Shown: in pieces, positions 2,984 to 57,274 of the stretch
Numbering within the stretch: the first letter of the stretch is position 1
Layout of the letters: each line of letters begins with the position of its first letter
Source: Octopus vulgaris
Taxonomy: Eukaryota
Length of the DNA: 64,000 bases
Reading direction: 5' to 3'
Assembly: GCA_951406725.2 (NCBI GenBank)
Contig: OX597818.1
Coordinates: 115,878,001 to 115,942,000, forward strand
Translations under genes and position numbers: made by a program
Notes under the pieces: model-generated
Seen by the model: the letters and a program-made list of their open reading frames with translations, nothing else
The model's database searches: none
What the model was told of the DNA's origin: nothing

Positions 2984-4285
2984 CATACATACATACATGC
3001 ATGCAAAAATACCCTGTTGTTGATGTTGAAATTCCAATGATGGAACCTTGGATCTAGGTTAGAAACCAGTTCTTTCTCTATTGGCAAGAAATCTTGAAAT
3101 AAACTGAATAATGATATACACACACATACATACATACATACATACATACATACATACATACATTCATGCAAACCTCCAGCTTCTATTCCAGACTATGAAT
3201 TCATTCCAATGATGGAATTGGAGCATTAGGTTTTTTGTTTAGTAAATGCTTAAAGGAGAATCTGGATAAATTGAGAATTTCAGAAAGAGGAATCGTCCGG
3301 CTGATTCATATATTACAAGTGCAATACCCTGTTGTTGATGTTGAAATTCCAATGATGGAACCTTGGATCTAGGTTAGAAACCAGTTCTTTCTCTATTGGC
3401 AAGAAATCTTGAAATAAACTGAATAATGATACACACACACACACACATACATACATACATACATACATACATACATACATACATACATGCATGCAAAAAT
3501 ACCCTGTTGTTGATGTTGAAATTCCAATGATGGAACCTTGGATCTAGGTTAGAAACCAGTTCTTTCTCTATTGGCAAGTAATCTTGAAATAAACTGAATA
3601 ATGATATACACACACACACACATACATACATACATACATACATACATACATACAACTTCTTCGAAACCTCCAGCTTCTATATCCAGACTATGAATTCATA
3701 TTCATACCAATATTAATTGGACCAATAGGTTTTTTTTAGTAAATGCTTAAAGGAGAATCTGTGAGAATTTCAGAAAGAGGAATCGTCGGCTGATTCATAT
3801 AACAATGCAAAGACAGTAAAAATATGCAAGACTTTTCTCAAGTTCCAAATGTGAATTTGCCTGTGTTAACTGCATCCCAAAGATGGAGCCTTGTATCTTT
3901 GCTGGATACCGGCTCCCTCCTGAGTAGAAGATGTATAAGGCTTAAAAAATTGAAGATACATACAACTTCTTCGAAACCTCCAGCTTCTATATCCAGACTA
4001 TGAATTCATATTCATACCAATATTAATTGGAGCATTAGGTTTTTTTAGTAAATGCTTAAATGAGAATATGGATAAACTGGGATTTTCAGAAAGAGAAATC
4101 GACCCGCTAATTCGTGGAACAGTAAAAATATGCAAGACTTTTCTCAAGTTCCGAATGTGAATTTGTCTGTCTTAACTACATTCCAAAGATGGAACCTTGT
4201 GTCTTTGTTGGAAACCGGCTCCCTCCTTAGTGGAAGACTTATAATAATTAAAAAATAGAAGTGACATACATACATACATACATAC
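2984..4285 (+). mobile_element. Tandemly duplicated 3'-end fragments of a Dong/R4-like (RLE) non-LTR element embedded in (CATA)n
   Basis: An ~110-bp unit occurs three times (~3007, ~3323, ~3496) and an ~300-bp unit twice plus a partial copy (~3651, ~3958, ~3171). The latter encodes YEFIFIPILIGALG...VKICKTFLKF, like RLE C-termini. Most units end in CATA repeats. Confidence 0.55.
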
Positions 4286-5799: not shown

Positions 5800-6575
5800 T
5801 TTTTATTGCCCACAGGGGGCTAAACATAGAGGGGACAAACAGGGACAGACAAGGGGATTAAGTCGATTACATCAACCCCAGTGATTAACTGGTACTTATT
5901 TAATCGACCCCGGCAAAATTTTATACACACACACACATGTAATATTTATTTGTTTATTGCTCACAAGGAGCTGAATGCAGAGGGGACAAACGAAGACAGA
6001 CAAAGGGATTAAGTTGATTACATTGACCCCAGTGTGTAACTGGTACTTATTTAATCAACGCCGAAAGGATGAAGAGCAAAGTCAACCTCAGCAAAATTTG
6101 AACTCAGAATATAACGGCAGATGAAATACCTATTTCTTTATTACCCACAAGGGGCTAGACATAGAGGGGACAAACGGATTAAGTCGATTACATCGACCCC
6201 AGTGCGTAACTGGTACTTAATTTATCAACCCCAAAAGGATGAAAGGTAAAGTCGACCTTGGCGGAATTTGAACTCATGTAACGTCAGACGAAATATGGCA
6301 ACGCATTTCGCCCGGAGTGCTAATGTCTCTGCCAGCTCCCCGGCAGATGAAATAACTATTTCTTTACCACCCACAAGGGGCTAAACAAGGACAGACAAAC
6401 GGATTAAGTCGATTATATCGACCCCAGTATGTAACTGGTACTTAATTTATTGACCCCGAAAAGATGAAAGGCAAAGTCGACCTCGGTGGAATTTGAACTC
6501 AGAACGTAACGGTAGATGAAATACCGCGAGGCATTTTGCCTGGCATGCTAACAATTCTGCCAGCTCACCGCTTCA
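5800..6575 (-). mobile_element. Nested/tandem cluster of tRNA-derived SINE family 1 (tail A)
   Basis: Head GGCGAGCTGGCAGAA (A box) and GAGTTCAAATTCC (B box), core GCCTTTCATCCTTTCGGGGTCGATAAATTAAGTACC, tail TTTAGCCCCTTGTGGGTAATAAAG. Other copies at ~1885-2112, 9040-9395, 16029-16255, 16470-16840, 19950-20315, 37375-37748, 45195-45657 and 54290-54580. Confidence 0.85.
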
Positions 6576-8266
6576 GGGTTAGGGTTAGGGTATTAAAATT
6601 TTGATATTATTGGCTCTGGTCTTTGTTCATACAGGCACAAATAAAATCTTATACATTTATTGTGAAGAAGGAGCCCTAAAAAATGTCTTATATGCCTTAT
6701 TCAAATATGCACCACTATAGGATTTAATGTCTGGGTTAAATACTCAAGTATTTAAACCAGACATATTGAAACTGACCAGATCCAGTCTTTCACACCTACC
6801 CTACAATGTCATTCTAAAAATAAACAATCATTATCATCATCATTGTTTAACATCCATTTTCCATGCCTCATGGGTTGGATAGTTCGACTGGGGTCTGGGA
6901 AGCCAGGAGGCTGCACCAGGCCCCAATCTGATCTGGCAGTGTTTCTACAGCTGGATGCCCTTCCTAACGCCAACCTCTCCGAGAGTGTAGTGGGTGCTTT
7001 TTATGTGCCACCTGTACAGGGGCCAGGGGAGCTGGCATTGACCACAATCGGATGATGCTTTTTATGTGCCACCGGCACTGGCATTGGCCACATTCAGATG
7101 GTACTTTTTACATGCCACCGGCACATCATCAAAATTTCAAGGTTATGAGATACTTCATTAATTTTTTAAAATGTAGATAATTAAACATTATATTTGATAA
7201 ATTGATTTGAATGCTGAAGTGTTAAAACCACAGAACTTTAAACAAGACAATTTCGATAGTTTGCTTCTTGTCTCAAATTTGAGTCAGTAAATTATTTACT
7301 TCAGTAACTCTTAATAAAGCTTTCAGGAAATGGTTTTTACCGTGTTTTACACAACCCTTTCATTACCATATTTCTACTGAAATATACTTTGCTTCAATTA
7401 ATACTGAAAATAATTAAGGATTTAGTCAAATAATTAAGAATTTAGACAAATAATTATGTCAATATTAAGATGGTGCTTAGAACTTAAATTAGCATAAAAT
7501 TTTAATGGAAGATTTATTTTTAATTTCAGTTGCTTTAAAACAGGATATTTCCTAAAACCAGGTTGGTAACAAAAGGGTTAATATGCAGATCCATGCAAAT
7601 TCTCTGTTAACTAAATCTGTAATATAAAGTTGGTACCTAGACACAATGATGTACTCACTTTATACCTAGACACAATGATGTACTCACTTTATTGTATGGC
7701 ATTTAATGTCTTTGAGCAATTTTCATTTTTTTAAAGTTAAGACAAGACAAAAAGCCACTCATTTTAAGGGACTTTCAGAAAATAATTCATTGCCAATGAA
7801 AATTGTGACCAAACAAGGAATTAAATTCTATTGGTGAAGGTGCTGAAGTGTATTGATAATAGTATTTATTAGACTTCCTACCCAGTGTTGCCTGGTAAAG
7901 TATTCACGGAATTGTTTGTCAGTTTGTAGAATAGGAATTCATGGTACTTATGCATGTATGTATATTTCACCTAATTTCTGGACTTAGTTAATTGGAACTA
8001 TCCAAACAAGAGTAATCAATTTACATGAGTAGAGGCTTTTTTTTTTTTTTTTAACAATTTTTATTCTGAAAATCACTTCTTACTTTTGTTTTGAAGTGAA
8101 AGTGGGGAAAAAGTGAAAGATGTATGAACGTGTATATGAAATGGATGTGTGTGTGTGAGAGAGACAGAGAGAGAGAAAGATAGTATGCCTCTTACACACA
8201 CATGTTCACTCACTCACACACACGTGCACATATAAATAAGATGTATGCATATGTATTGATGTATAT

Positions 8267-8657: not shown

Positions 8658-10928
8658 TATATACTTACACATGACAACACACCCCTTCACTCACTCTCTT
8701 TCTCTTTCACACACACACACATGTCTATTTCATATGTTTGTACATACATCTTACACTTTAAAACAAAAGTAAATGAATAATAAATTTTTACAGAAATTAA
8801 TGAACTCTGGATGATGAAATCGCATTCAGCTGAAAATATTTCAAAATGATTAAAATATTGTGTACATCAAAAAGTCAATGGTTTTTTTTTTTTTGTCTTC
8901 TTAGAGAGCATGAAGACAATGTGTGTGTATATGTCACAGGTAGCGAACGTGTGTTTGTGTCAATTGACATGCCATTATATGTGTGTGTATTCTGTACGTG
9001 TGCTGACATCATGGAAGCCATGTATTTTTTCAAGACGTAACAAAATTTGCCTTTCATCCTTTCAGAGTTGAAAAATTAAGTATCAGTTGCATACTAAGGT
9101 CAATCTAATCGACTGGCACCCCCTCCCCCAAAATTTCGGGCCTTGTGCCTAGAGAAGAAAAGAATCTTCTTCAATGCAAAGGCAGCAAGCTGGCAGAAAC
9201 GTTGGCATGCCAGGCGAAATGCTTAGTGGTATTTCGTCTGTCTTTACATTCAAAGTTCAGATTCCTCCAAGGTCAGCTTTGCCTTTCACCCATTCGGAGT
9301 TGATAAATTAAGTACCAGTTGCATACTGGGGTCGATCTAATCAACTGGCTCCCTCCATAAAACTTTTGGGTCTTGTGCCTACAGTAGAAAAGAATAACCA
9401 CTTGTAACTGTTGTTAATTACTACATCAAAAATACAAACTCAGGTAGCCTGTTGCTCAGGTAAGTCCTGTATAGTTGCTATTCTCACCAGAGTATCAAGA
9501 AAATCTTGTTTCTGTTCTTAAATTACTTTATGTTAATTAAGAAAGTGATGCACAGTCAGTCGGCTGCACCATAAACTGTATAGTACAGAATATATTAGTA
9601 TTCAATATCGGTAAATTATCGGAAATTTATGTTGAGTAGTTATTTTGTGGTGCATAAATAAGCACAAAAAGTTTTTTCAATTTTTAGGAGTAAATAGAAT
9701 AATTAATTAACCAAAAGCTAAAATTTTATTAGCACAGGTACAGGCATTGCTTCCCAACCACATGGTTCTGGGTTCAGTCCCACTTGAGCAAGTGTCTTCT
9801 ACTATAGCCTTGGGCCCAAACAAAGCTTAGTGAGTGGATTTGGTAGACGTAAACTGAAAGAAGCTCATCATGTATATATATATGTGTGTGTGTGTGTGTG
9901 TTTGTGTCTTCCCTGACCCCACCATCACCTGAAAATCAATGTCAGTGTGTTTGTGTCCCAGTAACTTAAGTTTGGCAAAAGAGTCTGATAGAATAAGTAC
10001 TAGGCTCACAAAGAATAAGTCCTGGAGTCGATTTGTTCAACTAAGCTCCAGCATGGCCACAGTCAAATGACTGAAACAAGTAAAAGAATCATCATCATCT
10101 TCTAACGTCCGCTTTCCATGCTGGCATGGGTTGGACGATTTGACTGAAGACTGGCGAACCAGATGGCTGCACCAGGCTCCAATCTGATCTGGCAGAGTTT
10201 CTACAGCTGGATGCCCTTTCTAACGCCAACCAATCTGAGAGTGTAGTATGAAAGAACATAATGCGTATGACTGTTTTCCGGCCAAACAATCCGTTTCTAT
10301 GCTTTACCATTTTACAAAAATGGACACCTCACACAACTAGAGGACCCAAATTTTACTGATAACTTAACATTGTTGTTTTGCAGTCATCACCAGATGCTGG
10401 ACAAGAAACTGAAACTATCAACAACTTTGAAGAAAGCTGGACTACAAATTCTGATAAACATGACTAGTGATTTCTTTATTACCCACAAGGTAATTCTGAT
10501 AAACATGACTAGTGTAAAACCAGTAAACCTGGAGGAGGTGAGGGCTTTCACATACCTGCACAGCATTGTTGTACACACCCAAAAAGAAATAAATAAAATA
10601 GCACCACAGCAGACAAGGTAAGAATTGGCAAAGCCTGGCCAGCTTTTCTGTAGCTTAATTGAAGAATATCTCATGCTCCAGAATTCAAACCATACCACTA
10701 AGGATCAAATGTTAAAACAGTGGTAAACTATGAGGCAAAATCCAATGGCACTGACTAGACAACTCACAGGAAGGAGCAAATCTTCCTAAACAGCTGCTCA
10801 GTTCTCTGGTCATATAAAACCATCCACATTGATCTCTAAGGACTCTACATGAGATTAACATGGGGTAACTGACACACTATGAACACCAGTAACCAGCAAT
10901 ACCAGTGAAGTCTTTACATGGAATACTG

Positions 10929-12344
10929 GGGCTACTGCAGTTTTGCACCTCTCCTTGAAAAATGCAACCCCACTCCCACCAAATTTTGAACTTTTTCGAA
11001 ATTTTTTCCCCTTTATGTTTTAGATGACGGAGATTCCAAATATGCAAGAAACCATGGTTTCAAAATTTTAAATTCAATGAGCATATAGATAGGTGTATAA
11101 AGAGATAGATATGAAAGTCCTCATGGGGCGAAAAACAACAGGACCGTCACATTTAGTTGACAAATATATTTTATGAATAAACAGACAAACAATAAATAAA
11201 TAAATGGATGAATGGAAGTTCAAAATTTAAAATTGGGGAAGGACGTGAAATTTGAGCCCCTTATTAAACTTTTTAACATTAATTAATTTATATCATTAAT
11301 TATTTAACTTTATAACATTAATGCTTGTTTCTCATAAAATGGTGTATTTAATTTACATTAAATTCTTATTTACACAAGTAAAACGCAAAATCTCTTCACT
11401 TTAATGCTTTTGTCAGGATTTAATTTCGATTTGCATATGCTTGTCAATTCGCTACAATTTCTTTCAAGTAAACAAAACCAAAAATTATAATTAGGGGGAG
11501 GGGGAGGTAGGCTAAATTAAAAAAATTTTTGATCTCCAACATCTAAAACATAGGAATTTGCAAAAAATCTGATAGGGTTCAGTATGGTGTCATCTCGCCT
11601 TTCCTCTTCACCACACTCAGATGAAAGAGGTATCAAAAATTTCTTTTTGGCTACTCGCTCTATCCCACCGAAAAGCCAGAGAGTTTTTGTAAGTCTTCCA
11701 AGATTATATTTTCTTCTTACCATAACCATCTCATCAATATCTACTTCGACTCCTGGCCCACCGATTTGATCCTGGTAATTCTCTACCCAATGCTGACAAA
11801 CCTCTGAACAGAAGGATCGCCAATCAATCGAGGTCGGATATGAAATCTTTAAATTCTCCATAACTAATGCATGCGACCAACAGTCTGTGAGATAGTTTAC
11901 AAATAACAGAACTTTACAGGGTGGTATCTGACTCCACTCCGAAAAAGTGTTGTTGTATAGGTATATGGAATATCCACATTGCGTTGGCCTTTGTCTTCAA
12001 CGGCGAACAGTCCTTCAACATCGGAAGATGCTTGTGCTTTCACGGAATGTACATGGTAAATGACATCTAGGGCAATCTACTGTACTGGGAATAACATTGT
12101 GTTTGCAAAAGAAATCTAGTGCCTCACTGTCATTATTAAATCGGCAAATTCCATCTTGTGATGTTAATTCACATGAATTGCAAAGTGCCATTCAGTTGCT
12201 GAAGGCCAAATGTATAATACAACGCTACTTTTTTTTTGCTTTTTTGCCTGGGTCAGACCCTCAGACGCTTTCGGAAATTCACGATGAAAAACTTTTTTTA
12301 AAAAACTGCATTTTTCAAGGAGAGGTACAAAACTGCATTAGCCC
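10929..12344 (-). mobile_element. Merlin/IS1016 (ISXO2-like) DNA transposon, defective
   Basis: ~38-bp TIRs (GGGCTAcTGCAGTTTTGcACCTCTCCTTGAAAAATGCA and its reverse complement at 12307-12344). Degenerate ~8-bp TSD (ggaatact/tgaatacc). Transposase remnant IGGPGVEVDIDE..RRKYNLGR..WLFGGIER with upstream CPRC zinc ribbon. Confidence 0.85.
11517..12160 (-). pseudogene. Merlin transposase pseudogene (frameshifts, stops, truncated DDE domain)
   Basis: ORF 11517-11861 carries DDE_Tnp_IS1595-type motifs. The N-terminal part upstream is in broken frames. Confidence 0.75.
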
Positions 12345-14082: not shown

Positions 14083-15405
14083 CTAAGGATCATCAGGAAT
14101 GGAAAGAGACTTAAAGTATTGCAAAGCTCTGTAAACACTATTTCCACAAATATTAAAGGTGGGATGTGTGGGTCTCACTTCGTTATCCTCTCCCCCAAGG
14201 ATGTGTAAAGCGAGTTTAGAGCCGTTATGCTGAGCGATAGACAATCCGCTCAGGCAATAACAAGTGTGATAGAAGTCCCGGGATTTCTTAGGTTTGTCAC
14301 GAAGACCGCCACGCATGTGTTGACAACAAGTTAATACATACTCCTGCAAAGCACCAGAATGAAACACCCAGGTGTCCGCAGGAAACCCAAGTTCACCTTG
14401 TTGTTGTAAAGCCGACTGCAAAAGCGCAATGGCACCACCTTGCCAAAACGAGTAACAACCATCAACCAGTTTTTCAGTGCGACCTTGAAAACCTCCTTCG
14501 AATTTCATTTGTCTGTTTGCAATCCAACGAAGCAACAATTTAGTATCACACAAATGGAGTTTGCCTAAAAGACACAAGGCAGCGAGTCCGCAAAAAGTGT
14601 AACCACCGTGGGCCTCCAAACCTGGGCGCCCGGCAAACCCACCTTCGTATGTCTGGCAACTTGCCACCCATTCTGGTGACAGGTAAAACAACTTTGAACA
14701 ACTGGAAATAATATTGCTGAGTACAGCAGCACTAGCAACGAGGTAGATTCCACGGACATCGGTTTCGCCGTTTTCATGGAGAGTAAAAGAACCATCAGGT
14801 TGTTTCATACGAAAGAAGAACGACAACAATTTCGGTCTGTCTATCACATCAAAACTGTGTTTAGTGCCTAGAATACATAAAGCGTTAACTGCAGCGTAAG
14901 TAGAAGCGAGGTGAGGCTCTTGTCCTGGTCCTCCGCCGAAACCTCCATTCGGATGTTGACAGCGATTTAAGAAATTTGCAATATTAGTCTCTAATTCCGA
15001 AGAAAGCGGTAGGGCGTCTAAGAGGTCAAGGCTGTGAAGAATCCAGTAACATATCCAAGTTCGGCTGGCATCGAGGCATTGGTAAGAGATTCCTAACTCT
15101 CGAAGACCTGCTGTCAGGAATTCAATGTGCCGTTTCCTTTTTAAAGACGGAGGAGCAGAGGAATTGGTCGGTCTGTCGATGAAGATTTCCTCAGAACCAG
15201 AATCGTCTTTGCTACTTTTTTCCATTTCGCCGAAGTATTTCGCTCGAGCAGCCAAGAACATTTTTTCAATTTCTTTCTCAACGTTTCCCTGCTCGTACGA
15301 AGTATCGGTGGGTATTCCATCGTTTTTCAGGCGGCTCGCCGCAAGGACACCGTCTTCAATATTCTCTGCATAGCGAGGAACAAGATGTTTAATTTCTGCC
15401 GCCAT
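14083..15405 (-). CDS. FNTB: Protein farnesyltransferase subunit beta, intronless, 440 aa from ATG 15405
   Basis: Prenyltransferase repeats. SRTWICYW (W102/W106 equivalents), EAHGGYTFC, FQGRTEKLVDGCYSFW (Zn ligands D297/C299), LRDKP (D352) and DFYHTCY (Y361/H362) identify FTase rather than GGTase. AATAAA at 14054-14059(-). Confidence 0.96.
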   Translation of the reverse strand: MAAEIKHLVPRYAENIEDGVLAASRLKNDGIPTDTSYEQGNVEKEIEKMFLAARAKYFGEMEKSSKDDSGSEEIFIDRPTNSSAPPSLKRKRHIEFLTAGLRELGISYQCLDASRTWICYWILHSLDLLDALPLSSELETNIANFLNRCQHPNGGFGGGPGQEPHLASTYAAVNALCILGTKHSFDVIDRPKLLSFFFRMKQPDGSFTLHENGETDVRGIYLVASAAVLSNIISSCSKLFYLSPEWVASCQTYEGGFAGRPGLEAHGGYTFCGLAALCLLGKLHLCDTKLLLRWIANRQMKFEGGFQGRTEKLVDGCYSFWQGGAIALLQSALQQQGELGFPADTWVFHSGALQEYVLTCCQHMRGGLRDKPKKSRDFYHTCYCLSGLSIAQHNGSKLALHILGGEDNEVRPTHPTFNICGNSVYRALQYFKSLSIPDDP

Positions 15406-15429
15406 GCTGTTTATCACGTGCTGCCATCA

Positions 15430-15925: not shown

Positions 15926-17173
15926 ATAATTCGATATACATTAATAAAGATAAATATAACACATTAGATTAACGTGTAACATCTTCAGTAACGCCGCCAC
16001 TGAATTTAGGACGTTTATATTACTTATAAGGCGGCGAGCTGGCAGAACCGTTAGCACGCCGGGCGAAATACGTAGCCGAATTTCATCTGTCGTTACGTTC
16101 TGAGTTCAAATTCCGCCGAGGTCGACTTTACCTTTCATCCTTTCGGGGTCGATAAATTAAGTTACACACTGGGGTCGATGTAGTCGACTTATTCCCTTTG
16201 TCTGTCCTTGTTTGTCCCCTCTGTGTTTAGCCCCTTGTGGGTAGTAAAGAAATATATATATTACTTACGAGTAATTCTGTATTTTCAGCTAGAGTGTAGT
16301 ACATACGAATATACCAGCCCGTGGCGCAATAAAATGTAGGCTCGCGGATGTTACCCCACCCCACCCGATTTAGACAATCCCCTATTATGAAACTAAGAAC
16401 TTCCTGCGTCACTAAGCATTCGCTGATAAAACTGGCAATTAAATCATGCATTGTAATACATTTGTGGGAAGTAGGTTAGTCAAATACATTGACCTCAGTG
16501 CTTAACTGGTACTTTGTTTTGTCGACTCCGAAAGAATCATATTGGTAAAGTTGACTGCGGCGTGATTTGACCTCAGAACGTAAACAGTTAGACGAAATAC
16601 CTATTTCTTTATTACCCACAAGGGGCTAAACACAGAGGGGACAAACAAGGACAGACAGACGGGAACAAACGGATCAAGTCGATTATATCGACCCCATTGC
16701 GTAACTGGTACTTATTTAATCGACCCCGAAAGAGTGAAAGGCAAAGTCGACCTCGGCGGATTTTGAACTCAGAACGTAACGGCAGACGAAATGCCGCTTA
16801 GCATTTTATCCGAAGCGCTGACGATTCTGATACTGCGTCAGCAAAAATTAGCAAATAATAATAAAGTTGTATGATGACCGTAAGACTTTCGCCTCGGCCG
16901 AATGCACCCGCCCCAAACTATTTATCCCACAAACTTACCAGCTAAATGAAATCACTAGCTATTTAGATTATAAATAAAATTTTTACCTAACAAATACACA
17001 GAACACTAACGTATAATTTTTATGCATGTGCACATACGCAAACGTTTCTTTTATTTATACTTTCAATATCTCTTTCAACTATATTTAAGCCATTCTACTT
17101 TTTCCAGAAATAATTCAAAAACTGTAATTTCAGGGGAGATAATCTAGGTTCCCCATCAAATGCGTTGACTACT

Positions 17174-19312: not shown

Positions 19313-20712
19313 CACGCTTACATCCGCCACCACACACACACACACACAATGGGCTTCTTTTTGTTTCTGTTCACGAAATCCATTCACAAGGCTTCGGTTG
19401 GCTTGGAGCTATAGCAGAAGACTCGGGACCATTGTATTTAAGTAGTACCAAAGACTCTAATCCAAGGTGCCTCTCAATGGGACCGAACCTGCAATCTTGT
19501 GATCACAAAACAAACTTCTTACCACACTGCCACACCTCTGCTTAAAAATATATATCTCTTCCATGGCAAGGAATCCTATCCCAATCTCTCAAGGATCGAA
19601 GTTGTCCGTAAATGTTTTTAAGTCATCTCTGAAAGATGCTGTATAAAATAACTTGCATACGATCTAAAGAAAACCAGGTTGGGTTTTGTTTTTAATTAAG
19701 ACTGCTTTTATTAACGCAGGCAGTTGAAAGGGATCCAATTAAAAAGCGACTGTCTTGATGTTTCAGCCTTTATAAAATGAAAGTAAATCAGTGAAAGCCA
19801 CGTTGTATAGTAATGCCATATTAGTCGTTCATGCATTTTTTTTTCTTTCTAGTATCGGTTGCATGAACCCATTAGTGTTGTATTGTTTTACAGCTGGATG
19901 TCCCTTCGTTAAGCTTCTTTTTTTTTACCCCATATGTCTTTGGAAGTACAAGGCGGCAAGCTGGCAGAAACGTTAGCACGCCGGGCGAAATGCGTAGCTG
20001 TATTTCATCTGCCGCTATGTTCTGAGTTCAAATTCCACCGAGGTCGACTTTGCCTTTCATCCTTTCGGGGTCGATTAAATAAGTACCAATTACGCACTGG
20101 GATCGATATAATCGACTTAATCCGTTTGTCCCCTTTGTGGGTAGTAAAGAAATAGGTATTTTGTCTGCCGTTACGTTCTGAGTTCAAATTCCGCCGAGGT
20201 CAACTTTGCCTTTCATCCTTTCGGGGTCAATAAATTAAGTACCAGTTGCGTACTGGAGTCGATCTAATCGACTGGCCCTCTCCCACAAAATTTCAGGTCA
20301 TACAATAGAAAAGGATTTGTTAGCAGGAGATATGACTTTGTTGCTTGTAGCTTTGCTATTTTCAGAGGAGCGTAAATGTAGACAAGCACATGAGCACGTG
20401 CACATACACACACACACACACATACTAGGTTTGCTTCCCATCCATGTTGCTTTTCGATTCAGTCCCACTCTGTGGCCCTTCAGGCAAGTGTCTTCTACTA
20501 TAGCCCCAGGCCACATCATCATCATCATCATCGTTTAACGTCCGCTTTCCATGTTGGTGTGTTTACATCCCTGTAACCTAGCAGTTCGGTAAAAAAAGAC
20601 TGAGAGAACAAGTACCAGGTTTACAAAGAATAACTCCTGGAGTTGATTAGTTCAACTAAAGGCGGTGCTCCAGCATGGCAGCAGTCAAATGACTGAAACA
20701 AGTAAAAAAGTA

Positions 20713-32901: not shown

Positions 32902-34431
<1,530 letters not shown>

Positions 34432-35464: not shown

Positions 35465-38400
35465 TTATAATCGCTCATATTAATGTCTAAATACTTGATA
35501 GTATTAATATTTTTGACATTTTATACAAAGAGCACTCATTATAAATTCAGTGTATAATATTCTAACAGAATATATTTAATTAATGATACATATAGACATA
35601 GTCGTAGCTGTGTGGTAAGTTAGCTTCCCAACTATATGGTCGTGGGTTCAATCCCATTGTGTGGTACTTTGAGTGTCTTCTGCTATAGCCTCAGGCTGAC
35701 TAAAATTTTGTGACTGGATTCAGTAGGTGGAAACTGTAAGAAGCCCATCATATATATATATATATGTGTGTGTGTGTATGTCATTATGTCTGTGTTTGCT
35801 CCCCAGTCTTGGTGTGATTTTGACCCTGTGACATAGCAGTTTGGTAAAAGAGACTGATAGAATAAGTACCAGGCTTTAAAAAAAAGTTCTTCAAGTCACT
35901 ACTCCAGCATGGCTGCAGTCTAATGACTGAGAAAAGAAAGAAAAAGACTATATATGTGTGTCTGTGTAAATTTAGGAATCAAACATGAAAGCGACTCAAA
36001 ATCCAAAGGGGAGTCTGTATGAGTTAAAAATAACTATAGAGCAAATAGTTATAGTTTACTGATTTCATTTATTAGCAAAAAACTCTGCTTTCGCTAATTC
36101 AGCAGCTCGTCTGAAACTACTTCATCTGAGCTGTAATATTAGCAGAGTTTCTTCACTAAAACGTTATATCTTCAAATTATACAACTATATATGTGTGTGT
36201 GTGCTTGTATACATTTACATACACATATACACACTGTGTGTATGTGTACAACTGTAGACAAGCGATGTCAAACAAATGGTAATGGTAATTTTCATCAGAC
36301 ATGGTCCGACAGAGCAGTGCATTTATTTTCAGACAGTTTCTTTTTTTTTTCAAAGAACTCCTCCAATCACAAAAGTAGGATGTGTTCATATTCTAAACTA
36401 TGGTAAACGACACCAGATTCCATCACTTTGTTCATCTAGAAAAAATAAATTTGTTAATATACCTCTCAGTATATACATCATATTGGTGTGTCTTATTTTT
36501 CTTGTGAAATTATTTTGAAATTATTCCAGTTTTTCATGTGATATATCATTTTTATTTACCATTTCCTAAGGATTGAATTTTAGCATCCTCTTACCTGAGG
36601 CTGGGTGGCGGTTCATCACTGCTAAATTTGTTTTAGTTCTTTTTTAAGTCTTTTTATGTTACTTTTCTTCATGTAATTTTTTAATAATTACCAAAATGTT
36701 TTTTGTGATAATTTCGGATTTTTGAAGTTTAGATAACTGAGGTAAAGTTGAAATTTTAATTTGAAATAAAATTGTATATAGACGCTGGAATGGCTGTGTG
36801 ATAAGTAGCTTGCTTACCAACCACATGGTTCCAGGTCCAGTCCCACTGCGTGGCACCTAGGGGAGGTGTCTTCTACTATAGCCTTGGGCTGACCAAAGCC
36901 TTGTGAGTGAATTCGGAAGACGGAAACTGAAGGAAGCCCATCGTATGTATATATATATATATATGTGTGTGTATGTTTGTGTGTCTGTGTTTGTTCCCCC
37001 ACCATCGCTTGACAACTGATGTTGTGGTGTTTACATCCCCTTAACTTAGTGGTTCAGCAAAAGAGACTGATAGAATAAGCACAAAGAATAAGTCCTGGGG
37101 TCGATTTGATCGACTAAAGTTGGTGCTCCAGCATGGCCACAGTCAAATGACTGAAACAAATAAAAGAATAAATTAATTGTTGATTACTTAATGGCTGCCA
37201 AACTATCTTGTGGAGATAAATAGTACAGTCAGTACAAGAAGAGAATATTTTCTTTTTTCAAGGAATCGTGGCATGATGAGTGTTCCAGTTGATCCGATCA
37301 ATGGAACAACCTGCTCGTGAAATTAAAGTGTAAGTTAGCTGAGCACTCCAGACATATGTACCCTTAACGTAATTCTTATTTCTTTACTGCCCACAAGGGG
37401 CTAAACACAGAGAGGACAAACAGATTAAGTCGATTACATCGACTCCAGTGCATAACTGGTACTTAATTTATCGACCCCAAAAGGATGAAAGGCAAAGGCG
37501 ACTGCGGCGGAACTTGAACTCAGAACATGGGAGCAGACGAGATACCTATTTCGGTACTAGCCATAAGGGGCTAAACACAGAGGACAGACAAACGGATTAA
37601 GTTGATTATATCAACCCCAATGCGTAACTGGTACTTATTTAATCGACCCTGGAAGGATGAAAGGCAAAGTCGACCTCGGCAGAATTTGAACTCAGAACGT
37701 AGCGGCAGATGAAATACCGCTAACATTTCTGCCAGCTCGCCGCCTTGATTCTTGGGGAGATTCAGCATGACACAGATTGTGACAAGGCTGGCCCTTTGAA
37801 ATACAGGTACAACAGAAACAGGAAGAAAGATGTGGTGAAAGAGTACAGCAGGGTTCACCCCCCCCCCGCCAGAGCTTGAGGTGTTTTCATTCAATAAACA
37901 CTCACAACACCTGGTCTGGGAATCGAAACCACTAGTCTGCTGCTCTAACCACTTTCAAGGAATAGGAAGGCATGCTCTAGAGTAAATGGTAGGCTGGTCC
38001 TGTCAGTGAACCTGTTTCTGTTTTCTCTCTCAAATTTGTGCTTATAATGGTTAGTGCTACATTGTAACCATATCAGGCTATGTTCTTGGCATACTGGGAA
38101 TAGCATGAACAAAATCTCTCTGGATTCCAGGTGAAACAGTAATGAACAGCACACAGAAAAAGAAGACAAAATACTAAAAATACGTGGTTCTGGGTTCAAT
38201 CCTGCTGTGTGGCGTCTTGGGCAAATGTCTTTTACTTACAGCCCCAAGTCAACTAAAGCCTTGTGAATGGATTTGGTTGACGGAAACTGGAAGAAACTCC
38301 TCATATATTTGTGCTTTATCCCACACCACTTCCTGACAACCAATATTGGTTTGTTTATGTCCCATAACCTTAGTAGTTTGGCAAAAGAAGCTGATAGAAT

Positions 38401-44104: not shown

Positions 44105-47100
44105 CTACAAGGAAAAAAGAAAGAAACACTAAATTATGAATCAAACAAACTAAAAACGTAATTAAGTACTTGAACTAATCATAACGGCACGAGTATTAGA
44201 AATCTTAATAAACTAGCAACTGGGTCATATATATGACAGATCAGCTTCACCTTACTGGCACCTGTGCCGGTGGTATGGGTAAAAGATTCAATCAAGGTCA
44301 TTGCCAGTACCACCTGACTGGCACGTAAAAGCACCCACTACACTCTTGGAGTGGTCGGTGTTAGGAAGGGCATCAAGCTGTAGAAACTTTGCCAGATCAA
44401 GATTGGAGCCTGGTGCAGCCATTTGGTTTGCCAGCCCTCAGTCAAATCGTCCAAGCATGGAAAGCGGATGTTAAACGATGATGATGATGATTATGATATC
44501 AAACATAATTGAGAAGCAAGTTTAGATGGCTGAAGATAAATGTTCTCCAAAGAATCAGCATAGATCCTTGATTCCACATTCTGAATGCTCTCAGAATCCA
44601 TCCCAACAGCCTCGTGCACAATCCTGCCATCTCAGTAATGTGGAAATGAAATGATGTATTATTACTCAAAATCAAATCACAATCAAATGGAAATTATAGT
44701 TGTGGCCGATGCCAGGGTCACCTGATTGGCTCCCCGTGCCTGTGACACATAAAAAGCACCCTTGGTTCCTGTGCCGGTAGCACGTAAAAAGCACCATCCA
44801 AATGTGGTCGATGCCAGTGCTGCCCGACTGGCGATGTTCCGATGGTGCCTTTTGACCCCTATTTTTTTAATATACTTAGTTGATTCTCAAAAAAAAAATC
44901 TATGAAAAACTCTTGGGTTTATTATATATTTTTTACAGCCCTGGTTTCTATTCTAATCTAATCTCTTTAGAGGGTTTCTCTATGTTTCCTATTTCTAGGA
45001 GTGTGTGGTTTTTTAGGTGAGGTTCTATATCTCACAAGAACCTTCCATTCTCTAGGAATTACATTTGTTGGCCTTTCTAAAACATGTTCAACAACATTAG
45101 ATAACACCTTCCCTCTCCATCCCAGCATCATCATCACCAAATGAAAGTGCTGTCACCATTCAGGAGACGCTTTTCCATTAGCAAATAATAATGATTTCAA
45201 ATTTTGGCACAAGGCCAGCAAGTGTGGGGGAGGGGCTAAGTCAATTACACCGACCCCAGTGCTTGACTAGCACTTATTTTATAGACCCCCAAAAGAATGC
45301 AAAGTCGACTGTAGCAGAATTTGAACCCAGAACAAAGGGGTGGGCAAAATGCTGAAGCATTTTGCCTGGCATACAATCCATTCTGACAGCTTGCCGTCTT
45401 ATTAGCAAATAATAATAATAATAATAGGGCAGTGAGCTGGCAGAAACGTTAGCGCGCCGGGCGAAATGCTTAGCGGTATTTCGTCTGTCGTTACGTTCTG
45501 AGTTCAAATTCCGCCGAGGTCGACTTGGCCTTTCATCCTTTCGGGGTCGATAAATAAAGTACCAGTTTCGCACTGGGGTCGATGTACTCGACTTAATCCC
45601 TTTGTCTGTCCTTGTTTGTCCCTTCTATGTTTAGCCCCTTGTGGGCAATAAAGAAATGAATAATAATAATAATAATGTAATTAAGCATAAAGAAACCTGA
45701 GAATGATTTTTATGTATGAAACTGATGCGAGAAGGAATTTCATTGAACAAAAGTTAAGCAAGTTCTAAGTAAAGGTCTTACCTGTTTGCTGGCAATAGCT
45801 GCAAGATCTCACAAAGTTGTGCTGAAAAATAAATATACATCTATGAATATATATACACTTATGTGGAGACACATGGCCTAGTGGTTAGAGCAGCAGACTC
45901 GCGGTCGAGGGATCGCGGTTTCGAATCTCAAACCGGGCGATGTGTGTGTGTGTTTATGAGCTGGACATTACTCCATCTGATTATCATTTATGCCACAGTC
46001 TTCAAAATCACTCGGACGGGAAAAATATGAATTCTGTAGACAAGGTCAGAACAGTACTGGAGGAGTATTTATCGTAATGGACAAGTGAATTTTGGAAGAG
46101 AGGCTTTGCAAGTCTACCAGATAGATGGAAGAGCATTGTAGATAATGAAGGAGAGTATATTTTAGATTAAAAAAGAATTTTACTTATCTTAATTTTGAAA
46201 AATAAAAGAAATATTTAAAAAACCGCATGACCATATATATATATATATATATACACATGTACACACACATATATTATCATCATCATCATTATTTAATGTC
46301 CATTTTTCACTCTCGGAGTGGTTGGTGTTAGAAAGGGCATCCAGCTGTAGAAACATTGCCAGATCAGATTGGAGCCTGGTGTAGCCGCTGGCTTGCCAGT
46401 CCTCAATCAAACCGTCCAACCCATGCCAGCGTGGAAAATGACGTTAAACGATGACGACGATGATATTATAATTCAAAAAAAAAAAAAGGAGCTGACATGG
46501 CAGTTTTTAATGTGATGGGAAAAAAATTTGCACCAAAATTTAACTCTAAACTAGGGGTGTGACCTAATCACAAGTACATATGGTATATTTCTATTTACAA
46601 TAAATACAATATATTTACATTGCAGTTAATGCCAGGTGAGAAAACGAGGCACATTATATGTTATATGCATTTTATAAACTCTACGAGTCACAGGGACACT
46701 ACCTGAAACTGAATTTTACACAGCTATAATACAAGATATTTATTTATTACTAAACATCAAGTTGAAATTGGTGGATAGAATTGTACTCGAAATTTGAAAA
46801 AGGGGGGTAAAATATATTGATTTTTAGCTGCAAAACATGGGACCTGCATTATATTTGCAATTACATAGCACTCACTACCAAGTGATTGTGATATGAGTTA
46901 TACACCTATTTTGTCTAATAGCATTCATTCATTCAATAAATAATTTTTTACATTACGTATATAGAATAAACTGTGAGTTTTGCAAATAGCAAATTAAAAC
47001 TAGAAAGGAAAACATTGAAATGAAAATAGAGGTGAGAGACTGTTGCAAATGAAAACAGAAAATTTCCCCTGCAAAGAATTAATAACGGTTATTAAATCTA

Positions 47101-50100
47101 CTCTGCAGTGAATGCAACGAATATTTAAATTTGTGAAAAACTTGCAGCTCAAATATTCAATAACCATCAGAAATCGAAATTACAGGAAATTTCTTGGAAC
47201 TTGAATTTATAAAAAAAATTTCCAGACGGTCAAGCCTTTAATAACTGCTTTCTTTTAGTAATTGTTACGTACCTATTTAATAAGCAGCTTTCTCCATTAT
47301 AATATAGATATATAAACACATAAAACAGCAAAGAAAAAATGTAAAAAAGACGTTAATCAAATTTGCAAGAGAGAACATACATACCTGGTCTGACTCGAAG
47401 AGTCGCACTGGCTAAAGCTACTTGAATAATCTGTCCAAGTCTTTCAATAGAGCAGAGGCAAGTCTCTTCCTCTGGTGATAAACCGTAACGTTTGCAAATG
47501 TCCATAAGTTCCTGAGATGTCTTTTTGATGTCAGCCGGTGTGAAAGGGTGCCCAGTGGCATTCGGTACATTGGGGCCAAGCAGTCCACTGACCGCAGTCC
47601 GGCCGGTACCGGTCGCTGCTGCATTGTTGGCGAGCAGGCTTTGAAGGACCCCCAAGTGGAGCCGCGAGAAGAGCTGCTGCTGCTGCTGGAGCCGATTGTT
47701 ATTGTTGCAGGTATTGGCCCCGATGTCCCCCCAGGAGTTTTTGTTGTTGTCAGTGGCCTTGAGACATAGCACGGGTCCCTTGACGCACCAGTTGGTGAGT
47801 CCAGGAAACGGTGAGCAGCCGTGCGAGGCGAACATCCGATAGCTACTGCCAGAGGATGCTGGACGCATAGACACCGAACACAGTCTGCTATCCGAGGAGA
47901 TCCAGTTGGTGACATGTTCCACAAGTTTCTCTGGCGGCATACCATCTAAAGCTGGAACAAAAGAAACAAACACCATTTTATACAACAATGTAACAGGTAA
48001 GTCATCATCAACTAGAATCAATATACTACTTACTAGCAGAAATACCTGTCGTTGACTGGGTTCAGAAAGAGTCTTCAAAAATTATACCCTGATTTATGAA
48101 AGGTACTACTTTGATATTATTGAATGTTTTGTAGCGGAATATCCGCAAACTCTTATTGCCAGGCTTCGGCCCCAAAAGTTATATTTTACAAATGGGTCCG
48201 CTGATAGTCAGTCTCTTCAGCTCTTTCTCTTTTCCTATGCTGAGATTGCTTAGGTAGTTCAAATCATTTTTTTTTTTTCCGGAGACATTGTAGTAGGGTG
48301 AATTAATCTATATGAAAGACACGGGACTTAACTCATGTCAGCAAACTTATGGATTTCACCAACGTGAAAAATTGGTAAAAGTTATGGATGAAAATCGATT
48401 TTTACCACTATCCGGAGGTGCCTTGGGAAAAATAAGTTGACACAAGCACAGCCACGGTCATGACCAATGTTCTCCTAAAATTGGAGCAGCATGTGTGCTA
48501 ATTTGTGGATGTGCATAAAGTACATTCACGTACACACACACATCCTGCCTTTTATAGATATAGATTAATTGCTTGTAGGGTCACCATATTTCATTCTGCA
48601 ACCATAATATATATTACCAAGTATATTAAAGACTGTGAGAAAGAGCAAAACTGGCTCGAAAACATAGGACTGTAAGTAAAATTAATGAACCGCTGCTGCA
48701 GTACCTTCCTGGAAGTCCTCACATCTATAAGTCAGTTGATACAACCCCAGATCCAGAAGTGGTGGTAAATTATTCTACAGAATTCCTCAATTCTGAGGAT
48801 CTCATAATTAATGTAAAACATTTTTAATGTAAAAAAAATCTATAATAGCTCTAAAACCTTTAGCATTTATACCAGCCAAATCCAACAAAAATATTCTGTT
48901 TTATGTTCTAATTGGCCACATCTGGCCTCTTACACCTACCCCACAACACCATTCTAAAATTAACACTCAGCCCACCCAACCTCTAACAGAAGGTCAGTCC
49001 TGATGCATCTCCAACATCTATTTCTCTTTCTCTCTCACTGTCTCTCTATCTTCCTCTCTAATTATCTCTCCCCTCTTTTCCTACTGGGGTAGCCAAGTAT
49101 GTCCTCCTCACTAAGACACCTATCTCTATCCCTCTATTATATTCCAACCTCTCACCTGGCACTAGGATACTTCCTGTGGCTCTGCTCCCTCTCCCAGCTG
49201 AGAGATCTTTACATCACAAGTCACTTGGTGACCCTGCTGGTATCAATGCCATGTAAAAAGCACCAGTGCTGATGTCGCATAAAAAGCACCCTGTATACTC
49301 CGTAAAGTGGTTGGCATTAGGAAGGGCATCAGCTGTAGAAACCATGCGAAAATGGATAATTGGAGCCAGGTACAGCTCTCTGGCTTGCAAGCTCCTGTCA
49401 AACTGTTCAAACCAAGCTAGCATGGAAGATGAATGTTAAATGATGATATCAAAATCTTGCAGCTATGAAATAACACATGATTAATTCAAAACATCATCAT
49501 CATCATTTAACATCCACTTTCCATGCTAGCATGGGTTGGAAAATTGACTGAAGGCTGCCGAACCAGATGGCTGCACCAGGCTTCAATCTTGATCTGGCAG
49601 AGTTTCTACAGCTGGATGCCCTTCCTAACGCCAACCACTCTGAGAGTGTAGTGGGTGCTTTTACATTCCAACCGGCACGGGGCCAATCAGGTGGTACTGG
49701 CAACGACCTCGCTCGAATCTTTTACACATGCCACTGGCACAGGTGCCAGTAAGGCGATGCTGGTAATGATCACGCTCAAATAGTGTCTTTTCCATGCCAC
49801 CAGCACGAAGGCCAAATAGCCGCTCTGGCAATGATCACGCTTGTATGGTGCTCTTAATACCCTACTAGCACGGGGCTTGAGTGCCAGTAAGGTGACGCTG
49901 GTAACAATCATGCTCGAATGGTGTCTTTTATGTGCCACTGGCATGGAGACAGATTGATCCAAATGTTAAACAGTTAAGAAAGATAAATGCTACGAAATAC
50001 CGACACTTTCCTTGACCCCAATCTTCATATAAAACAAAAGAGACAAAACTCATTCAACTTACTGTTACATGGGAATAGAGCGGTTACCGCTGCAATGAAG

Positions 50101-50837: not shown

Positions 50838-53800
50838 TATATATAGACATTATATACATATATATATACATATATATATATATATACATACACACACATA
50901 TATATATAGTTACGAAGGCTGCAAGCTCTGTCCCACTCATCTTTCTTCATCAATATCAGTTAACCCTTTAACATTTTAACTGGCTAAATCGGGCCAAAAT
51001 ATCATATCTGGCTCATGTTCAAATCCTCCAAATATGGCCTCCTACACTTAATTTACAATGTCATTCTGGGTGGCACGTAAAAAGCACCCACTACACTCAC
51101 GGAGTGGTTGGCGTTAGGAAGGGCATCCAGCCGTAGAAACACTGCCAGATCTGACTGGGCCTGATGAAGCCTTCTGTCTTCACAGACCCCAGTTGAACCG
51201 TCCAACCCATGCTAGCATGGAAAACGGATGCTAAACGATGATGATGATGATGATGATTCTAGAAATAAACTATTAAATCAATGAAATCTCGAAACTACAA
51301 GATAATGCCTGATTAATTCAAAACATACCAGTGCCATGTAAAAAGCACCCAGTGCTCTCAGGAAAGTGGTTGGCATTGGGAAGGGCATCCTACCATAGAA
51401 ACTATACCAACACAAGACAACTGGAGGCTGGTGCAGCTCTCTAGCTGGCCACGTCCTGTCAAACCATCTAACCTGTGTCATCATGAAAAGCAAACATTAA
51501 ATGATGATAATGATGATACATTTGACAGAGTAATCATAATACTAAAGGGTTAAAGAGGGCCAGCCATTCCCTCATTAATTTTACCAATCTTAGAGAACCA
51601 GCAAAGGTCAGGAGTACTCTTTTACCCTTTTACTTGTTTCAGTCATTTGACTGCGGCCATGCTGGAGCACCGCCTTTATTCAAGCAAATCGACCCCAGGA
51701 CTTATCCTCTGTAAGCCTAGTACTTATTCTATCAGTCTCTTTTGCCGAACCACTAAGTTACGGGGACGTAAACACGCCAGCATCGGTTGTCAAGCAATGT
51801 TGGGGGGACAAGCACAGACACACAAACATACACATATATACAACGGCCTTCTTTCAGTTTCCATCTACCAAATTCAATCACAAGGCTTTGGTTGGCCTGA
51901 GGCTATAGTAGAAGACACTTGCCCAAGGTACCACGCAGTGGGACTGAACCCGGAACCATGTGGTTCGTAAGCAAGCTACTTACAACACAGCCACTCCTAC
52001 GCGTCTTGACTAAAACAAAGGGGGTGGGAAAATAAAGGTAAAAAATTTAGAGAAGTGAGAAAACAAGGAGTACGTTTAGTTACCTGCATCCATAGAGCAG
52101 TACAGTCGAGAACAGCCGTACACTTTATTGACATTGCCATGGAAACAAGCTTGGTCAGCAAGTTGACTTTCAACAAGGCTGCTTCCCCAGCAAACATGAT
52201 GGCAAATATGCTGTTTCTTTCATTTTCCTTCTGGTCAGTGATGTACGAGCAGAGAATTTCGAGTAACTGCAGTTCTTGGATGGCAGTGAGTCGCTGAAAG
52301 AGTAATGAAGAACCAAACTGAGACAGACAGACAGACATTCAAACAGACATGCAGATAGAGACAGGGACAGACAGACATGTAGAGACAGACAAACATTCAA
52401 ACATACATACAGACAGAGACAGACAGACATGCAGATAGACAAACAGAGATCATCCAATGTCTTGGGTTTTTTTTCCGGGTGTGATACACCCAAAACTACA
52501 TTGTCCAATATATTTTTCATTTAATTGGTGTTGTTTAATTCCAGGTCAGCCCTAACCAGACAGGCTAATGTATGCTTAAAAGGATTCCAGCTATGTCCAC
52601 CATCATCATCATCATCATTTTTATGTCCAACATGAGAAGAAACAAAATGAGATAATGAGTGAAACTTTTACATTAATGATTCTCACCCAGGGCCCATATA
52701 AAATTGTTATTAAAATTTTATGGGCATGGCTGTGTGGTTAGGGAGCTTGCTTCCTAGCTACATGGTTTCGGGTTCAGTCCCACTGCGTGGCACTTTGGGT
52801 AGGTGTCTTCTGCTATAGCCCCGAGCCGACCGAAGCTTTGTGATTGAATTCGGCAGGCGGAAGTTACTGCCGTGTGTGTACATGTACGTGTAAGTGCTTG
52901 TGCCTCTCCCAAAGAGAGAGAGAGGGATATAACAAAAAGCTTCCACTACACTCTCGGAGTGGTTGGCGTTAGAAGGGCATCCAGCTGTAGAAACAATGCC
53001 AGAATAGCCCAGAGTCTGGTGCAGCCTCCTGGCTTCCCAGACTCCAGTCAAACCGTCCAACCCATGCCAGCATGGAAAACGGATGTTAAACGATGATGAG
53101 AAGACCCGGAAACTAAAGTGGCATCACAGTCACGCATGTCCGGCCCTGTTAAGAATAGATCTGATGCGTCGGTTGATATGATATGCTTGAGAAGACCTGT
53201 TGAGTCAAGTAAAAGCAATATCATAGCTGGGGCTAGTGCCCCCTGACTGGCTCCTATGCCGGTGGCACGTAAAAAGCACCATCCGAATGTAGTCGATGCC
53301 AGGTCCACCTGACTGGCTCCAGTGCTGGTGGCACATAAAAACCACCAACCAAACATGGCCAATGCCAGTTCCCCCAGACTGGCTCCCATGCCAGTGGAAT
53401 GTAAAATGCACCATCTGAACATGGTCAATGTCAGGTCTGCCTGGAGGCCGCACCAGGCTCCAATCTGATCTGGCAGTATTTCTACAGCTGGATGCCCTTC
53501 CTAACACCAGCCGCTCCGAGAATGTAGTGGGTGTTTTTTACGTGCCACCGGCATGGGAGCCCATCAGGCGGCACTGGCATTGGCCACATTCAGATGGTGC
53601 TTTTTACGTGCTACCCGCACAGGAACCAGTCAGGGTGGGGGACTGACATTGACCACATTTGGATGGTGCTCTTTACGCGCCACCAGCACAGAGAGCCAGT
53701 CAGGCAGCACCTCCCCCACAAATCACTCTTATCTTCTAAAAAAAAAAATGAACAAAATGGGATGGTCACAGCTCATAAGTCTGCTCAACAAGGTTAGACC

Positions 53801-54090: not shown

Positions 54091-55888
54091 TTTAACTCCT
54101 GAAAGAAACAAGAAGAATATTATTATTTTTCTTTTCTCTTTACAGATTCCAACACCGATTTCTTCATCTAAAAATATCTGAGATGGAATAGTTAAGAGTA
54201 ATATTTTAAAACTAATTATTCACCTCGTTTTTAAAGATGTAAACAATTTTAATTAGCACAAGAGCACTACATTAGTATTCGTGTAAGTTGACAAGCTGGC
54301 AGAATCGTTAGCACGCCGGGCGAAATGCTTAGCGGTATTTCGTCTGCGTTACGTTGTGAGTTCAAATTCCGCCGAGGTCGACTTTGCCTTTCATCCTTTC
54401 GGGGTCGATAAATTAAGTACCAGTTACGCACTGGGGTCGATGTAATCGACTTAATACCTATGTCTGTCCTTGTTTGTCCCCTCTGTGTTTAGCCCCTTGT
54501 GGGTAATAAAGAAATAGGTATTTTGTCTGCTGCTACATTCTGAGTTCAAATTTCGACATGGTCAACTTTGCCTTTCATTCTTTCCATCTAACCCATGCTA
54601 GCATGGAAAACGGACATTAAATGATGATGATGATGATGATGATAAATGGAGATGTAAGGTATTAATAAATGCACATTATTAACCTTGCTGTGAAAACGTG
54701 GATAAATACTTTTGGTGGCACGTAAAAAGCACCCACTACACTTGCGGAGTGGTTGGCGTTAGGAAGGGCATCCAGCCGTAGAAACACTGCCAGATCAGAC
54801 TGGGCCTGATGCAGCCTTCTGGCTTCACAGACTCCAGTTGAACCGTCCAACCCATGCTAGCATGGAAAACGGACACTAAATGATGATGATGATGATGATG
54901 ATGATTAAGGCAGTGAGCCAGCAGAATCGTTAACAAACCCTGCCAGTGTTGGGGGCCATGTAAAAAGCATCCAGTCCACACTATGAAGTGGTTGGCATTT
55001 GGAACGGCATCCAGCTGTAAAACCATGCCAAAACAGACACAGAACAATTAAGTTACAGGAACAAAAACACCAGCATCAGTTGTGAAGTGATGGTGGAGGG
55101 ACAAACACAGACACACACAAATATATATATATATATCTTTATATATATATAAAACTGAGAATGTGTGTCTGTCTGTCTGCCTGTGTGTTTCCCTAAAACT
55201 TGAGAACTACATAACCAATTTCATTCAAATTTTACACATGCCTTACTTAGGGTCCGGGGAGTGTCATCGGCAAAAAAAATGTTCAACTTCTTGCCTAGAG
55301 CGAGCCCATAGCAATATCATATCTCCTCCACTATTTCAGTATTACGTGTCAAAAGTGAAACAAAAACGTTTCTGTATTTTATGTCAGATACTTTCACTTT
55401 AACAATAAAAATAATAATAACAATTGAATTATATGTAGTAAGTAATAATTAAAATCAAACTAAAGTATAATATAATCGTAACATAACAAAAGTAAAAATA
55501 GCAATTGGTATAAAATTGCATCAATGATTTGAACTTGAATAAGTGGTTTCACATGAATGGGAATAAATTAAAAATAAAATTAGCATGCAGAAATGGAATA
55601 GTCCAGATGGATAATAGAAAATTAAATTAAAGAAAATGTAGAGAAAAAAGATTTGAACACATGGAGGAAATCAATTTATTGCGTTATTAGTAAGTTGATA
55701 TATATTTTTGCTCTCATACTACTTATCTCTGTTATTATATACTGTTGGTCTACCTTTTTTTGTCCATTGTTGTCTAACGGACGAAGTCAACCTTCGCGCG
55801 AAGACTTCGCGTTGGTGTTCCCCCCTCAGTGGGGGAAAACTACAATCAATTTAGATTACCAAAGGCTTGTTAAAGCCATTTGTTCAAA

Positions 55889-57022: not shown

Positions 57023-57274
57023 CAGACTCGGAAACGTGTTGGCAGCCATGGCCAATGTGAAGAGAGTAGAGAAAAAAATGACTTTCTAATTTACAAAATA
57101 GACCGGAAGGATTACGGGCGGATAAAGTCAGAATTCTTCCATGACGTAGGCCCACTTAGGTTGGATGTAACATCTCCACATATATTCGAGGGCCTACGTC
57201 AGACTCCCCCACGAGGCCCAGAAAAAGAGAAGGAAGAAGAAGAAAAAACCGAACCACTGATATAAAGGTAAGTA

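Follow-up and report, generated by a model that had tools for sequence, protein, structure and literature searches.

Recurrent tail-to-head junctions suggest that an octopus SINE inserts site-specifically into its own head

Results

A LINE-tailed SINE family in a repeat-rich window

We analysed a 64-kb stretch of Octopus vulgaris DNA (contig OX597818.1; hereafter the window), which has a GC content of ~39% and is rich in repeats. It carries two apparently intronless single open frames, one for a whole Tip60-like MYST acetyltransferase (32902-34431, +) and one for a prenyltransferase beta-type subunit (14083-15426, -), together with a frame matching Integrator subunit 15 that is probably one large exon (47353-48081, -). 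A 159-residue frame (11517-11996, -), which we take to be Merlin/IS1595-type transposase-like, gave no Pfam match up to E 1. Tandem duplications lie at 3323-3654 (175 bases, 98% matches) and 3648-4270 (306 bases, 84%), and an intact L1/Tx1-type LINE with ORF1 (~55889-57022) and ORF2 (57275-60670) both open occupies 55671-60916 (+), within a perfect 12-bp duplication of an unrelated target.

The window also holds ~19 units of a SINE, each laid out as a head (~50 bases 5' of the target described below), a common body and one of three tails, termed A, B and older type. Tail A is common to the SINE and to the 3' segment of the LINE (60871-60909, +; 36/40 identical, E 3e-10), which makes this a LINE-tailed SINE whose last bases differ from those of the LINE. 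The head has motifs resembling an A-box and a B-box; ARAGORN found no tRNA genes in the window, and Rfam had no matches there, hence no sign of the snRNA-derived head of a SINEU proper. We presume the SINE to be the same family as, or a sister of, the octopus OR1/OR2 CORE-SINEs, since it appears to resemble them in its tRNA-like head, central core and alternative tails. OR1/OR2 are named as octopus CORE-SINEs in the accessible text of PMC4824008 and PMC4758252, and two of the three supplements of PMC4824008, which could be searched, contained no match to the SINE. Scans of a genome contig collection for stray copies beyond the window gave 0 matches, and every count below is that of one 64-kb window.

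Several further copies deserve description. A SINE 3' end of only ~23 bases (10470-10492, -) has a perfect 23-bp duplication and points to a target-primed insertion that was truncated very early. Two tail-B copies lie head-to-tail at 9044-9393 (+) with a 15-base spacer, and no duplication was found at this pair. A young tail-A copy (45426-45657, +) sits in a trinucleotide run, back to back with an old copy (45192-45400, -) and next to that copy's duplication. One 16-base sequence recurs at 16847-16862, 45177-45192 and 45401-45416 (-), with 3 matches against 0.24 expected: it forms a perfect duplication on both sides of an old-type solo SINE, and the same bases precede the old-type head at 16846. 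This flank of old-type copies may be another favoured target, one that served the old subfamily.

Tail-A ends recur at one position in SINE heads

Six of the 13 tail-A ends in the window enter the same internal head position, every time in the host's orientation and in 5 separate hosts. As the original prediction had it, the tail-to-head junction recurs at 6130(-), 6356(-), 16601(-), 20155(+), 37546(-) and 54517(+), with 7-8 of 8 target bases matching at each. No tail-B or old-type end lies at the head site (0/5), and the remaining 7/13 tail-A ends lie elsewhere, so that site specificity is only partial. The position is thus fixed, the orientation single and the hosts unrelated. If insertions were random and independent, 6/13 would be expected by chance at ~1e-21, a negligible level, which makes independence the real question.

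What follows the junction varies from host to host: a tail-A remainder (6130, 37546), a tail-B remainder (20155), one with the older third tail (16601), a repeat-cut unit (54517) and 16 bases alone (6356). Remainders with tail A or tail B had already been noted, and both are present, but the list had to be widened by the last three kinds. The pair at 16455-16846 (-) combines an old-type head (16796-16846), a young tail-A body (16602-16795) and an old-type remainder (16455-16601). At 19950-20315 (+), a tail-A unit (19950-20154) runs into a tail-B remainder (20155-20315), with four T at the junction, and at 37377-37746 (-) a tail-A unit with a head deletion (37547-37746) precedes a tail-A remainder (37377-37546). 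The fourth pair (54285-54585, +) joins a very young tail-A unit (54285-54516, 1/122 mismatches) to an old truncated remainder (54517-54585, 11/69), again with four T at the junction. Another abundant repeat family, with internal 46-69-base tandem units and trinucleotide tails, is found at 7032-7124, 53242-53704, 54586-54905, 61362-61509 and 63290-63432, and a piece of it cuts off the right unit at 54585. These nested pairs are joined in the window by the triple described next.

A duplicated target within a nested triple

On the (-) strand, 6115-6130 and 6341-6356 read GGTATTTCATCTGCCG and GTTATTTCATCTGCCG, which are 15/16 identical and directly flank a near-full tail-A SINE (copy B, 6131-6340, -) that lacks ~6 bases of its 5' end and has 2-4 bases of microhomology with the end of the duplication. 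In an anchored search this duplication scored 16, against a maximum of 7 among 400 random flank pairs, and the 16-mer is internal sequence of the SINE, with 13 matches at up to 3 mismatches (0.46 expected), all within SINE copies. Both claims originally made for this copy, a 16-bp near-perfect duplication and its origin in the SINE itself, are therefore confirmed.

The upstream copy of the target-site duplication (6341-6356, -) is preceded by the body and tail of copy C, probably the first inserted tail-A SINE (6357-6509, -; body with 3/79 mismatches to the majority), which is joined seamlessly to a head with a third target copy (6510-6574, -; 10/49 mismatches in the head) that is probably the host's. 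The downstream copy (6115-6130, -) begins the host remainder, which continues as the rest of an older tail-A SINE, copy A (5947-6114, -; 2/11 CpGs kept, 16/123 mismatches). All three target copies carry one CpG-decay letter that is also present in 3/15 other copies, and the internal target of copy B itself is without it. We infer that host A received insert C, joined seamlessly, and then insert B at the preserved site. The alternative that 6341-6356 belongs to a right unit into which a B-A dimer was inserted was rejected, as there is no matching duplication or continued remainder after 5947. Directly upstream of the cluster's head, at 6574-6592, lie ~3 telomere-type hexamers.

Young copies in mostly older, unrelated hosts

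We compared the units on the two sides of the junctions. Right units diverge by 13-29% from one another (mean 23) versus 6-16% (mean 11) for left units, and in a tree of 16/19 units (three short ones, including the right unit at 54517, were left out) some group with the old-type solo copy, others with tail-B or tail-A copies. One clade for the right units was rejected (p-AU 7e-5, with 4/5 right units in the tree), while one clade for the six left units was not (p-AU 0.38). Lefts keep 50/66 CpGs and rights 24/51 (p 0.002, with sites that are not independent). The left unit is clearly younger in 3/5 pairs (mismatches 8 vs 16, 9 vs 25 and 1 vs 11), about equal to the right in 2/5 (10 vs 11 and 11 vs 13) and clearly older in none. 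These results indicate that the insertions are independent and did not hitch-hike as a unit, since the hosts are not one clade and age is asymmetric in 3/5 pairs.

The same data bear on a single dimeric master element retrotransposed as a unit, which would give an identical junction everywhere and lefts that may be one clade. It is hard to reconcile with right units that have three tail types, the divergence given above and no common clade, and we regard it as very improbable: these loci cannot derive from one master dimer, an explanation that is largely refuted in this window, while minor dimer masters are possible elsewhere in the genome. The original prediction had named one monophyletic master subfamily lacking duplications as its refutation; the monophyly fails on the right units, although 5/6 junctions are indeed without a duplication.

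Spread at the DNA level, by ectopic gene conversion of a founder pair into solo SINEs or by unequal crossing-over of units, would also account for heads that are seamless, a junction that is fixed and remainders that vary, and the accessible part of PMC11481361 describes clam arrays in which the first head is full and all later ones are truncated alike. Against this, neighbouring units differ by 16-25%, and copies B and C by 13%, at least as much as lefts that are not linked. Gene conversion, moreover, neither makes the non-homologous 5' join with duplication of copy B nor predicts young lefts in old hosts, so that we consider spread of this kind unlikely. As the distance between neighbours shows, the pairs are neither local duplications nor assembly doubles; a local tandem duplication or SINE-derived satellite was rejected because neighbours are no more alike than unlinked copies.

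Most junctions show a single head

A plain insertion should leave the host's head and an upstream duplication in front of the new copy, yet 5/6 junctions show one head only and the duplication is seen at only 1/6, around copy B. Duplications at other tail-A copies measure 11, 18 and 23 bp, and that of the LINE 12 bp. A single head that belongs to the host should match the right unit in age. The head at 16846 is more diverged than the left body (10/36 vs 5/91 mismatches, p 0.001) and has three letters in common with the old-type solo copy, whose 16-base upstream flank it also shares. The 6574 head shows 10/49 mismatches vs 5/94 in the left body (p 0.007, or 0.02 with other intervals). The signal at 54285 lies in the first bases only, which may be flank, and is gone when these are left out (p 0.49), and there is no head-age signal at 19950 and 37746. 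The head variant at 19950 is common to copy B and a solo tail-A copy, so that a switch point there would lie further upstream. Six solo controls were null with the first choice of intervals, and two controls gave p 0.04-0.05 with the second. Altogether, the reading that the head belongs to the host fits, with one strong case (16846), one moderate (6574) and three uninformative ones.

In the available part of a study of R2 proteins, templates sharing the upstream target gave full-length 5' junctions, most of them made seamless by annealing of the cDNA and a minority of them joined with a duplication (PMC11371274). The lack of a duplication at 5/6 octopus junctions may likewise arise because the 5' end was joined by homology, and not because of a master dimer, the visible duplication being located where the site was reused behind a tail (copy B).

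Single heads would also result from template jumping, in which a SINE RNA is cut in a hairpin loop, giving 3' pieces with a fixed 5' end, and reverse transcriptase copies one such piece before switching to another RNA at its tail, so that the pair is made in a single event and no DNA site is targeted. The junction does lie exactly at the loop edge of a well-paired hairpin (see below), duplications are absent as this would require, the 37377-37746 (-) pair as a whole is flanked by a 6-bp duplication (p ~0.04), and the accessible text of PMC4494074 proposes template switching as the origin of 5' additions in SINEU. However, right units are much older in 3/5 pairs and the 16846 head is old-type, copy B could only be explained by a 16-base piece with the same private letter as the host, and 0/4 of the 5'-truncated solo copies start at the junction position. 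We thus think it improbable that the pairs were made in this way.

Self-insertion as the favoured mechanism

We therefore favour, as the probable explanation, repeated site-specific insertion of the tail-A SINE into the heads of existing, mostly older copies of itself. This keeps the core of the original prediction, since the insertions are independent and position-specific (6/13 ends, 5 hosts), and restricts it, specificity being partial (7/13 elsewhere). Tail-A copies would be mobilised with an L1/Tx1-type partner by target-primed reverse transcription, a chemistry that we infer, and a large share of events would prime at one position in existing SINE heads of any subfamily. The bottom strand would be nicked at the 3' edge of the loop of the head hairpin, the RNA copied from its tail, and the top strand cut ~16 bases further along. 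In a native head, the cDNA would end in sequence homologous to host DNA just upstream and would anneal to it (or a doubled head would collapse later), and the product would be one head, a young body and tail, and an old remainder, with no visible duplication. The site would persist behind the new tail, open to a second insertion; this time a tail would lie upstream, in-register annealing would be impossible, and an ordinary join would leave a 16-bp duplication, as at copy B.

The head hairpin has 13 pairs, and 45458-45487 (+) provides an example of an unoccupied site, with the junction position (45475) at the 3' edge of a 4-base loop. It is paired in 93% of cells versus 35-54% when slid, with one compensatory change in 3/10 heads. 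A head variant at 6278-6323(-), 16051-16096 and 19973-20018 alters both bases of the loop-closing pair and is at the junction in 0/5 hosts. Nicking driven by a cruciform was considered and rejected, the hairpin being no more stable than shuffles on either strand. An inverted repeat also spans the junction itself (6115-6140 and others), where the last six tail bases face target bases 3-8 and mimic the head hairpin; its 6-base arms have a chance of ~0.003 per site, and it folds weakly (-1.8 kcal/mol as DNA, none as RNA). Pairing of tail to head was absent from the predicted fold of the whole SINE RNA.

The source of the specificity

We next consider what directs the insertions. The LINE of the window has Exo_endo_phos, RVT_1 and zf-RVT domains in ORF2 (APE endonuclease, reverse transcriptase and C-terminal zinc motif), with a zf-CCHC zinc knuckle only at E 0.06. 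Its best solved match is L1 ORF2p (E 7e-65), the closest protein found is 58% identical, and 1/25 homologues is named, with a TX1-type label at 26% identity. Judged by domain content, it is of the L1/Tx1 type and a putative member of the Tx1 group of the L1 clade, and its insertion is probably recent. Its own target matches the SINE head site at 0/8 positions (n=1) and its last bases differ from those of the SINE, so that the partner is probably a sister family and this LINE a probable relative of it, in agreement with the caveat that came with the original prediction. No sister LINE was seen in the 64-kb window, and the suggested look for Tx1 LINEs at the SINE site found no LINE in any SINE head there. 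A sequence-specific Tx1 endonuclease is thus no more than a candidate cause: the single LINE sits at a 0/8 site, and some signs point to the 3' end of the RNA.

Specificity may come from the endonuclease of a sister LINE family, with a preference that is graded and that the SINE head satisfies best, a proposal to which we give a little under an even chance. The flanks of the seven non-self tail-A ends match the site at 22/56 positions, with ~15 expected (p 0.02-0.05 under three nulls) and the best fit at offset 0, the end of the 5.8 kb fragment being uncertain in this comparison; this likeness is a hint of a graded preference. Eight of the ten exact 8-base target matches in the window lie in SINE copies, so that a strong preference for this word would mostly hit heads. 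The endonuclease preference is possibly sharpened by pairing of RNA and target.

A variant of self-insertion, compatible with it, is that nested copies make their own guide. Their transcripts would run on beyond the tail by a few bases and stop within the first letters of the target, and this 3' tag would anneal to any nicked SINE head and prime reverse transcription, giving a fixed junction without a specific endonuclease. A four-T polymerase III stop past the tail would be provided by CpG decay in an old host, and each insertion could make a new source. SINE copies would then form a self-renewing landing pad, with a SINE-encoded tag complementary to every other head and a specificity that spreads by positive feedback. 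Several observations point this way. The last tail letter is identical at 6/6 junctions and differs at 2/6 clean non-self ends; lefts cluster, with one letter in 4/6 of them vs 0/12 others (p 0.005) and one clade not rejected; one tail variant is nested at 6/8 ends vs 0/5 for the other variant (p 0.02); the right-hand target at 16601 has the young letter and the head the old one; and four T are present at 2/6 junctions. A 4-base 3' tag also guides R2 priming in the available part of PMC11371274. However, 0/7 non-self ends in the window had the tag between the tail and unrelated DNA, the lefts comprise two or more head types, and their clustering is also expected if one subfamily was active when a specific partner was. 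Non-self flanks, furthermore, show their weak likeness to the site without the tag letters at the junction. We regard the guide, and with it the landing pad, as a close rival that is somewhat less likely than the endonuclease, and endonuclease and RNA tag may both act.

Discussion

Non-LTR elements with a specific target are known already, and they usually choose multicopy genes of the host, microsatellites or other transposons; it is the SINE's own head as the target that differs here. Sequential insertion at a site preserved by the first copy is also familiar from tandem Alu insertions at a reused L1 site, although Alu uses a generic A-rich site and the octopus SINE an internal position of the element. 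Our search of openly accessible papers brought up no account of a SINE that targets its own head; one could exist in subscription papers, Repbase or bioRxiv supplements, and the 1994 octopus paper may mention doubled copies.

The closest precedent, from the accessible text of PMC4494074, is crocodilian SINEU-3/Tx1-Mar. SINEU-3 inserts into Mariner-N4_AMi with a 16-bp duplication at a target shared with Tx1-Mar LINEs, its tandems sandwich the 16-bp duplication via sequential insertion, and the preference of sister SINE families is weaker (13-23%). The octopus SINE likewise uses a fixed site of a high-copy repeat, with a 16-bp duplication at 1/6 junctions and tandems around it, and presumably a Tx1-type partner. 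Unlike in SINEU-3, the target is its own head and not another element, most junctions are seamless and no LINE is seen at the site: insertion recurs at one position, as in the crocodilian case, but the LINE of the window did not use the same target (0/8, n=1). The proposed seamless annealing, the minority of duplicating joins and the possible pairing of a 3' tag with the nicked primer recall what the available part of PMC11371274 describes for R2; R2, however, has a restriction-like endonuclease, an rDNA target and, in that work, engineered templates, whereas the partner here would be of APE type and the homology would result from self-targeting.

In the accessible text of PMC11481361, clam SINE tandem arrays are put down to unequal recombination, and one class of array consists of highly similar units. 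The octopus pairs resemble these bivalve arrays and reptile SINE-derived satellites (PMC10702118, as far as available) in being head-to-tail, with the first head full and later ones truncated at one position, and differ from such arrays attributed to unequal recombination in that their units vary in age and subfamily. By analogy, some clam arrays might stem from the same self-insertion process.

By targeting its own head, a SINE gains a site where insertion is harmless and which becomes more numerous as the element succeeds. Because joining by homology erases the duplication, such self-insertions hide and resemble a dimeric family; if this is general, repeat libraries for this genome would mis-annotate and misdate nested pairs. 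Many nested copies would also form a natural dataset on RNA-target pairing in the choice of the priming site and on the joining of 5' ends.
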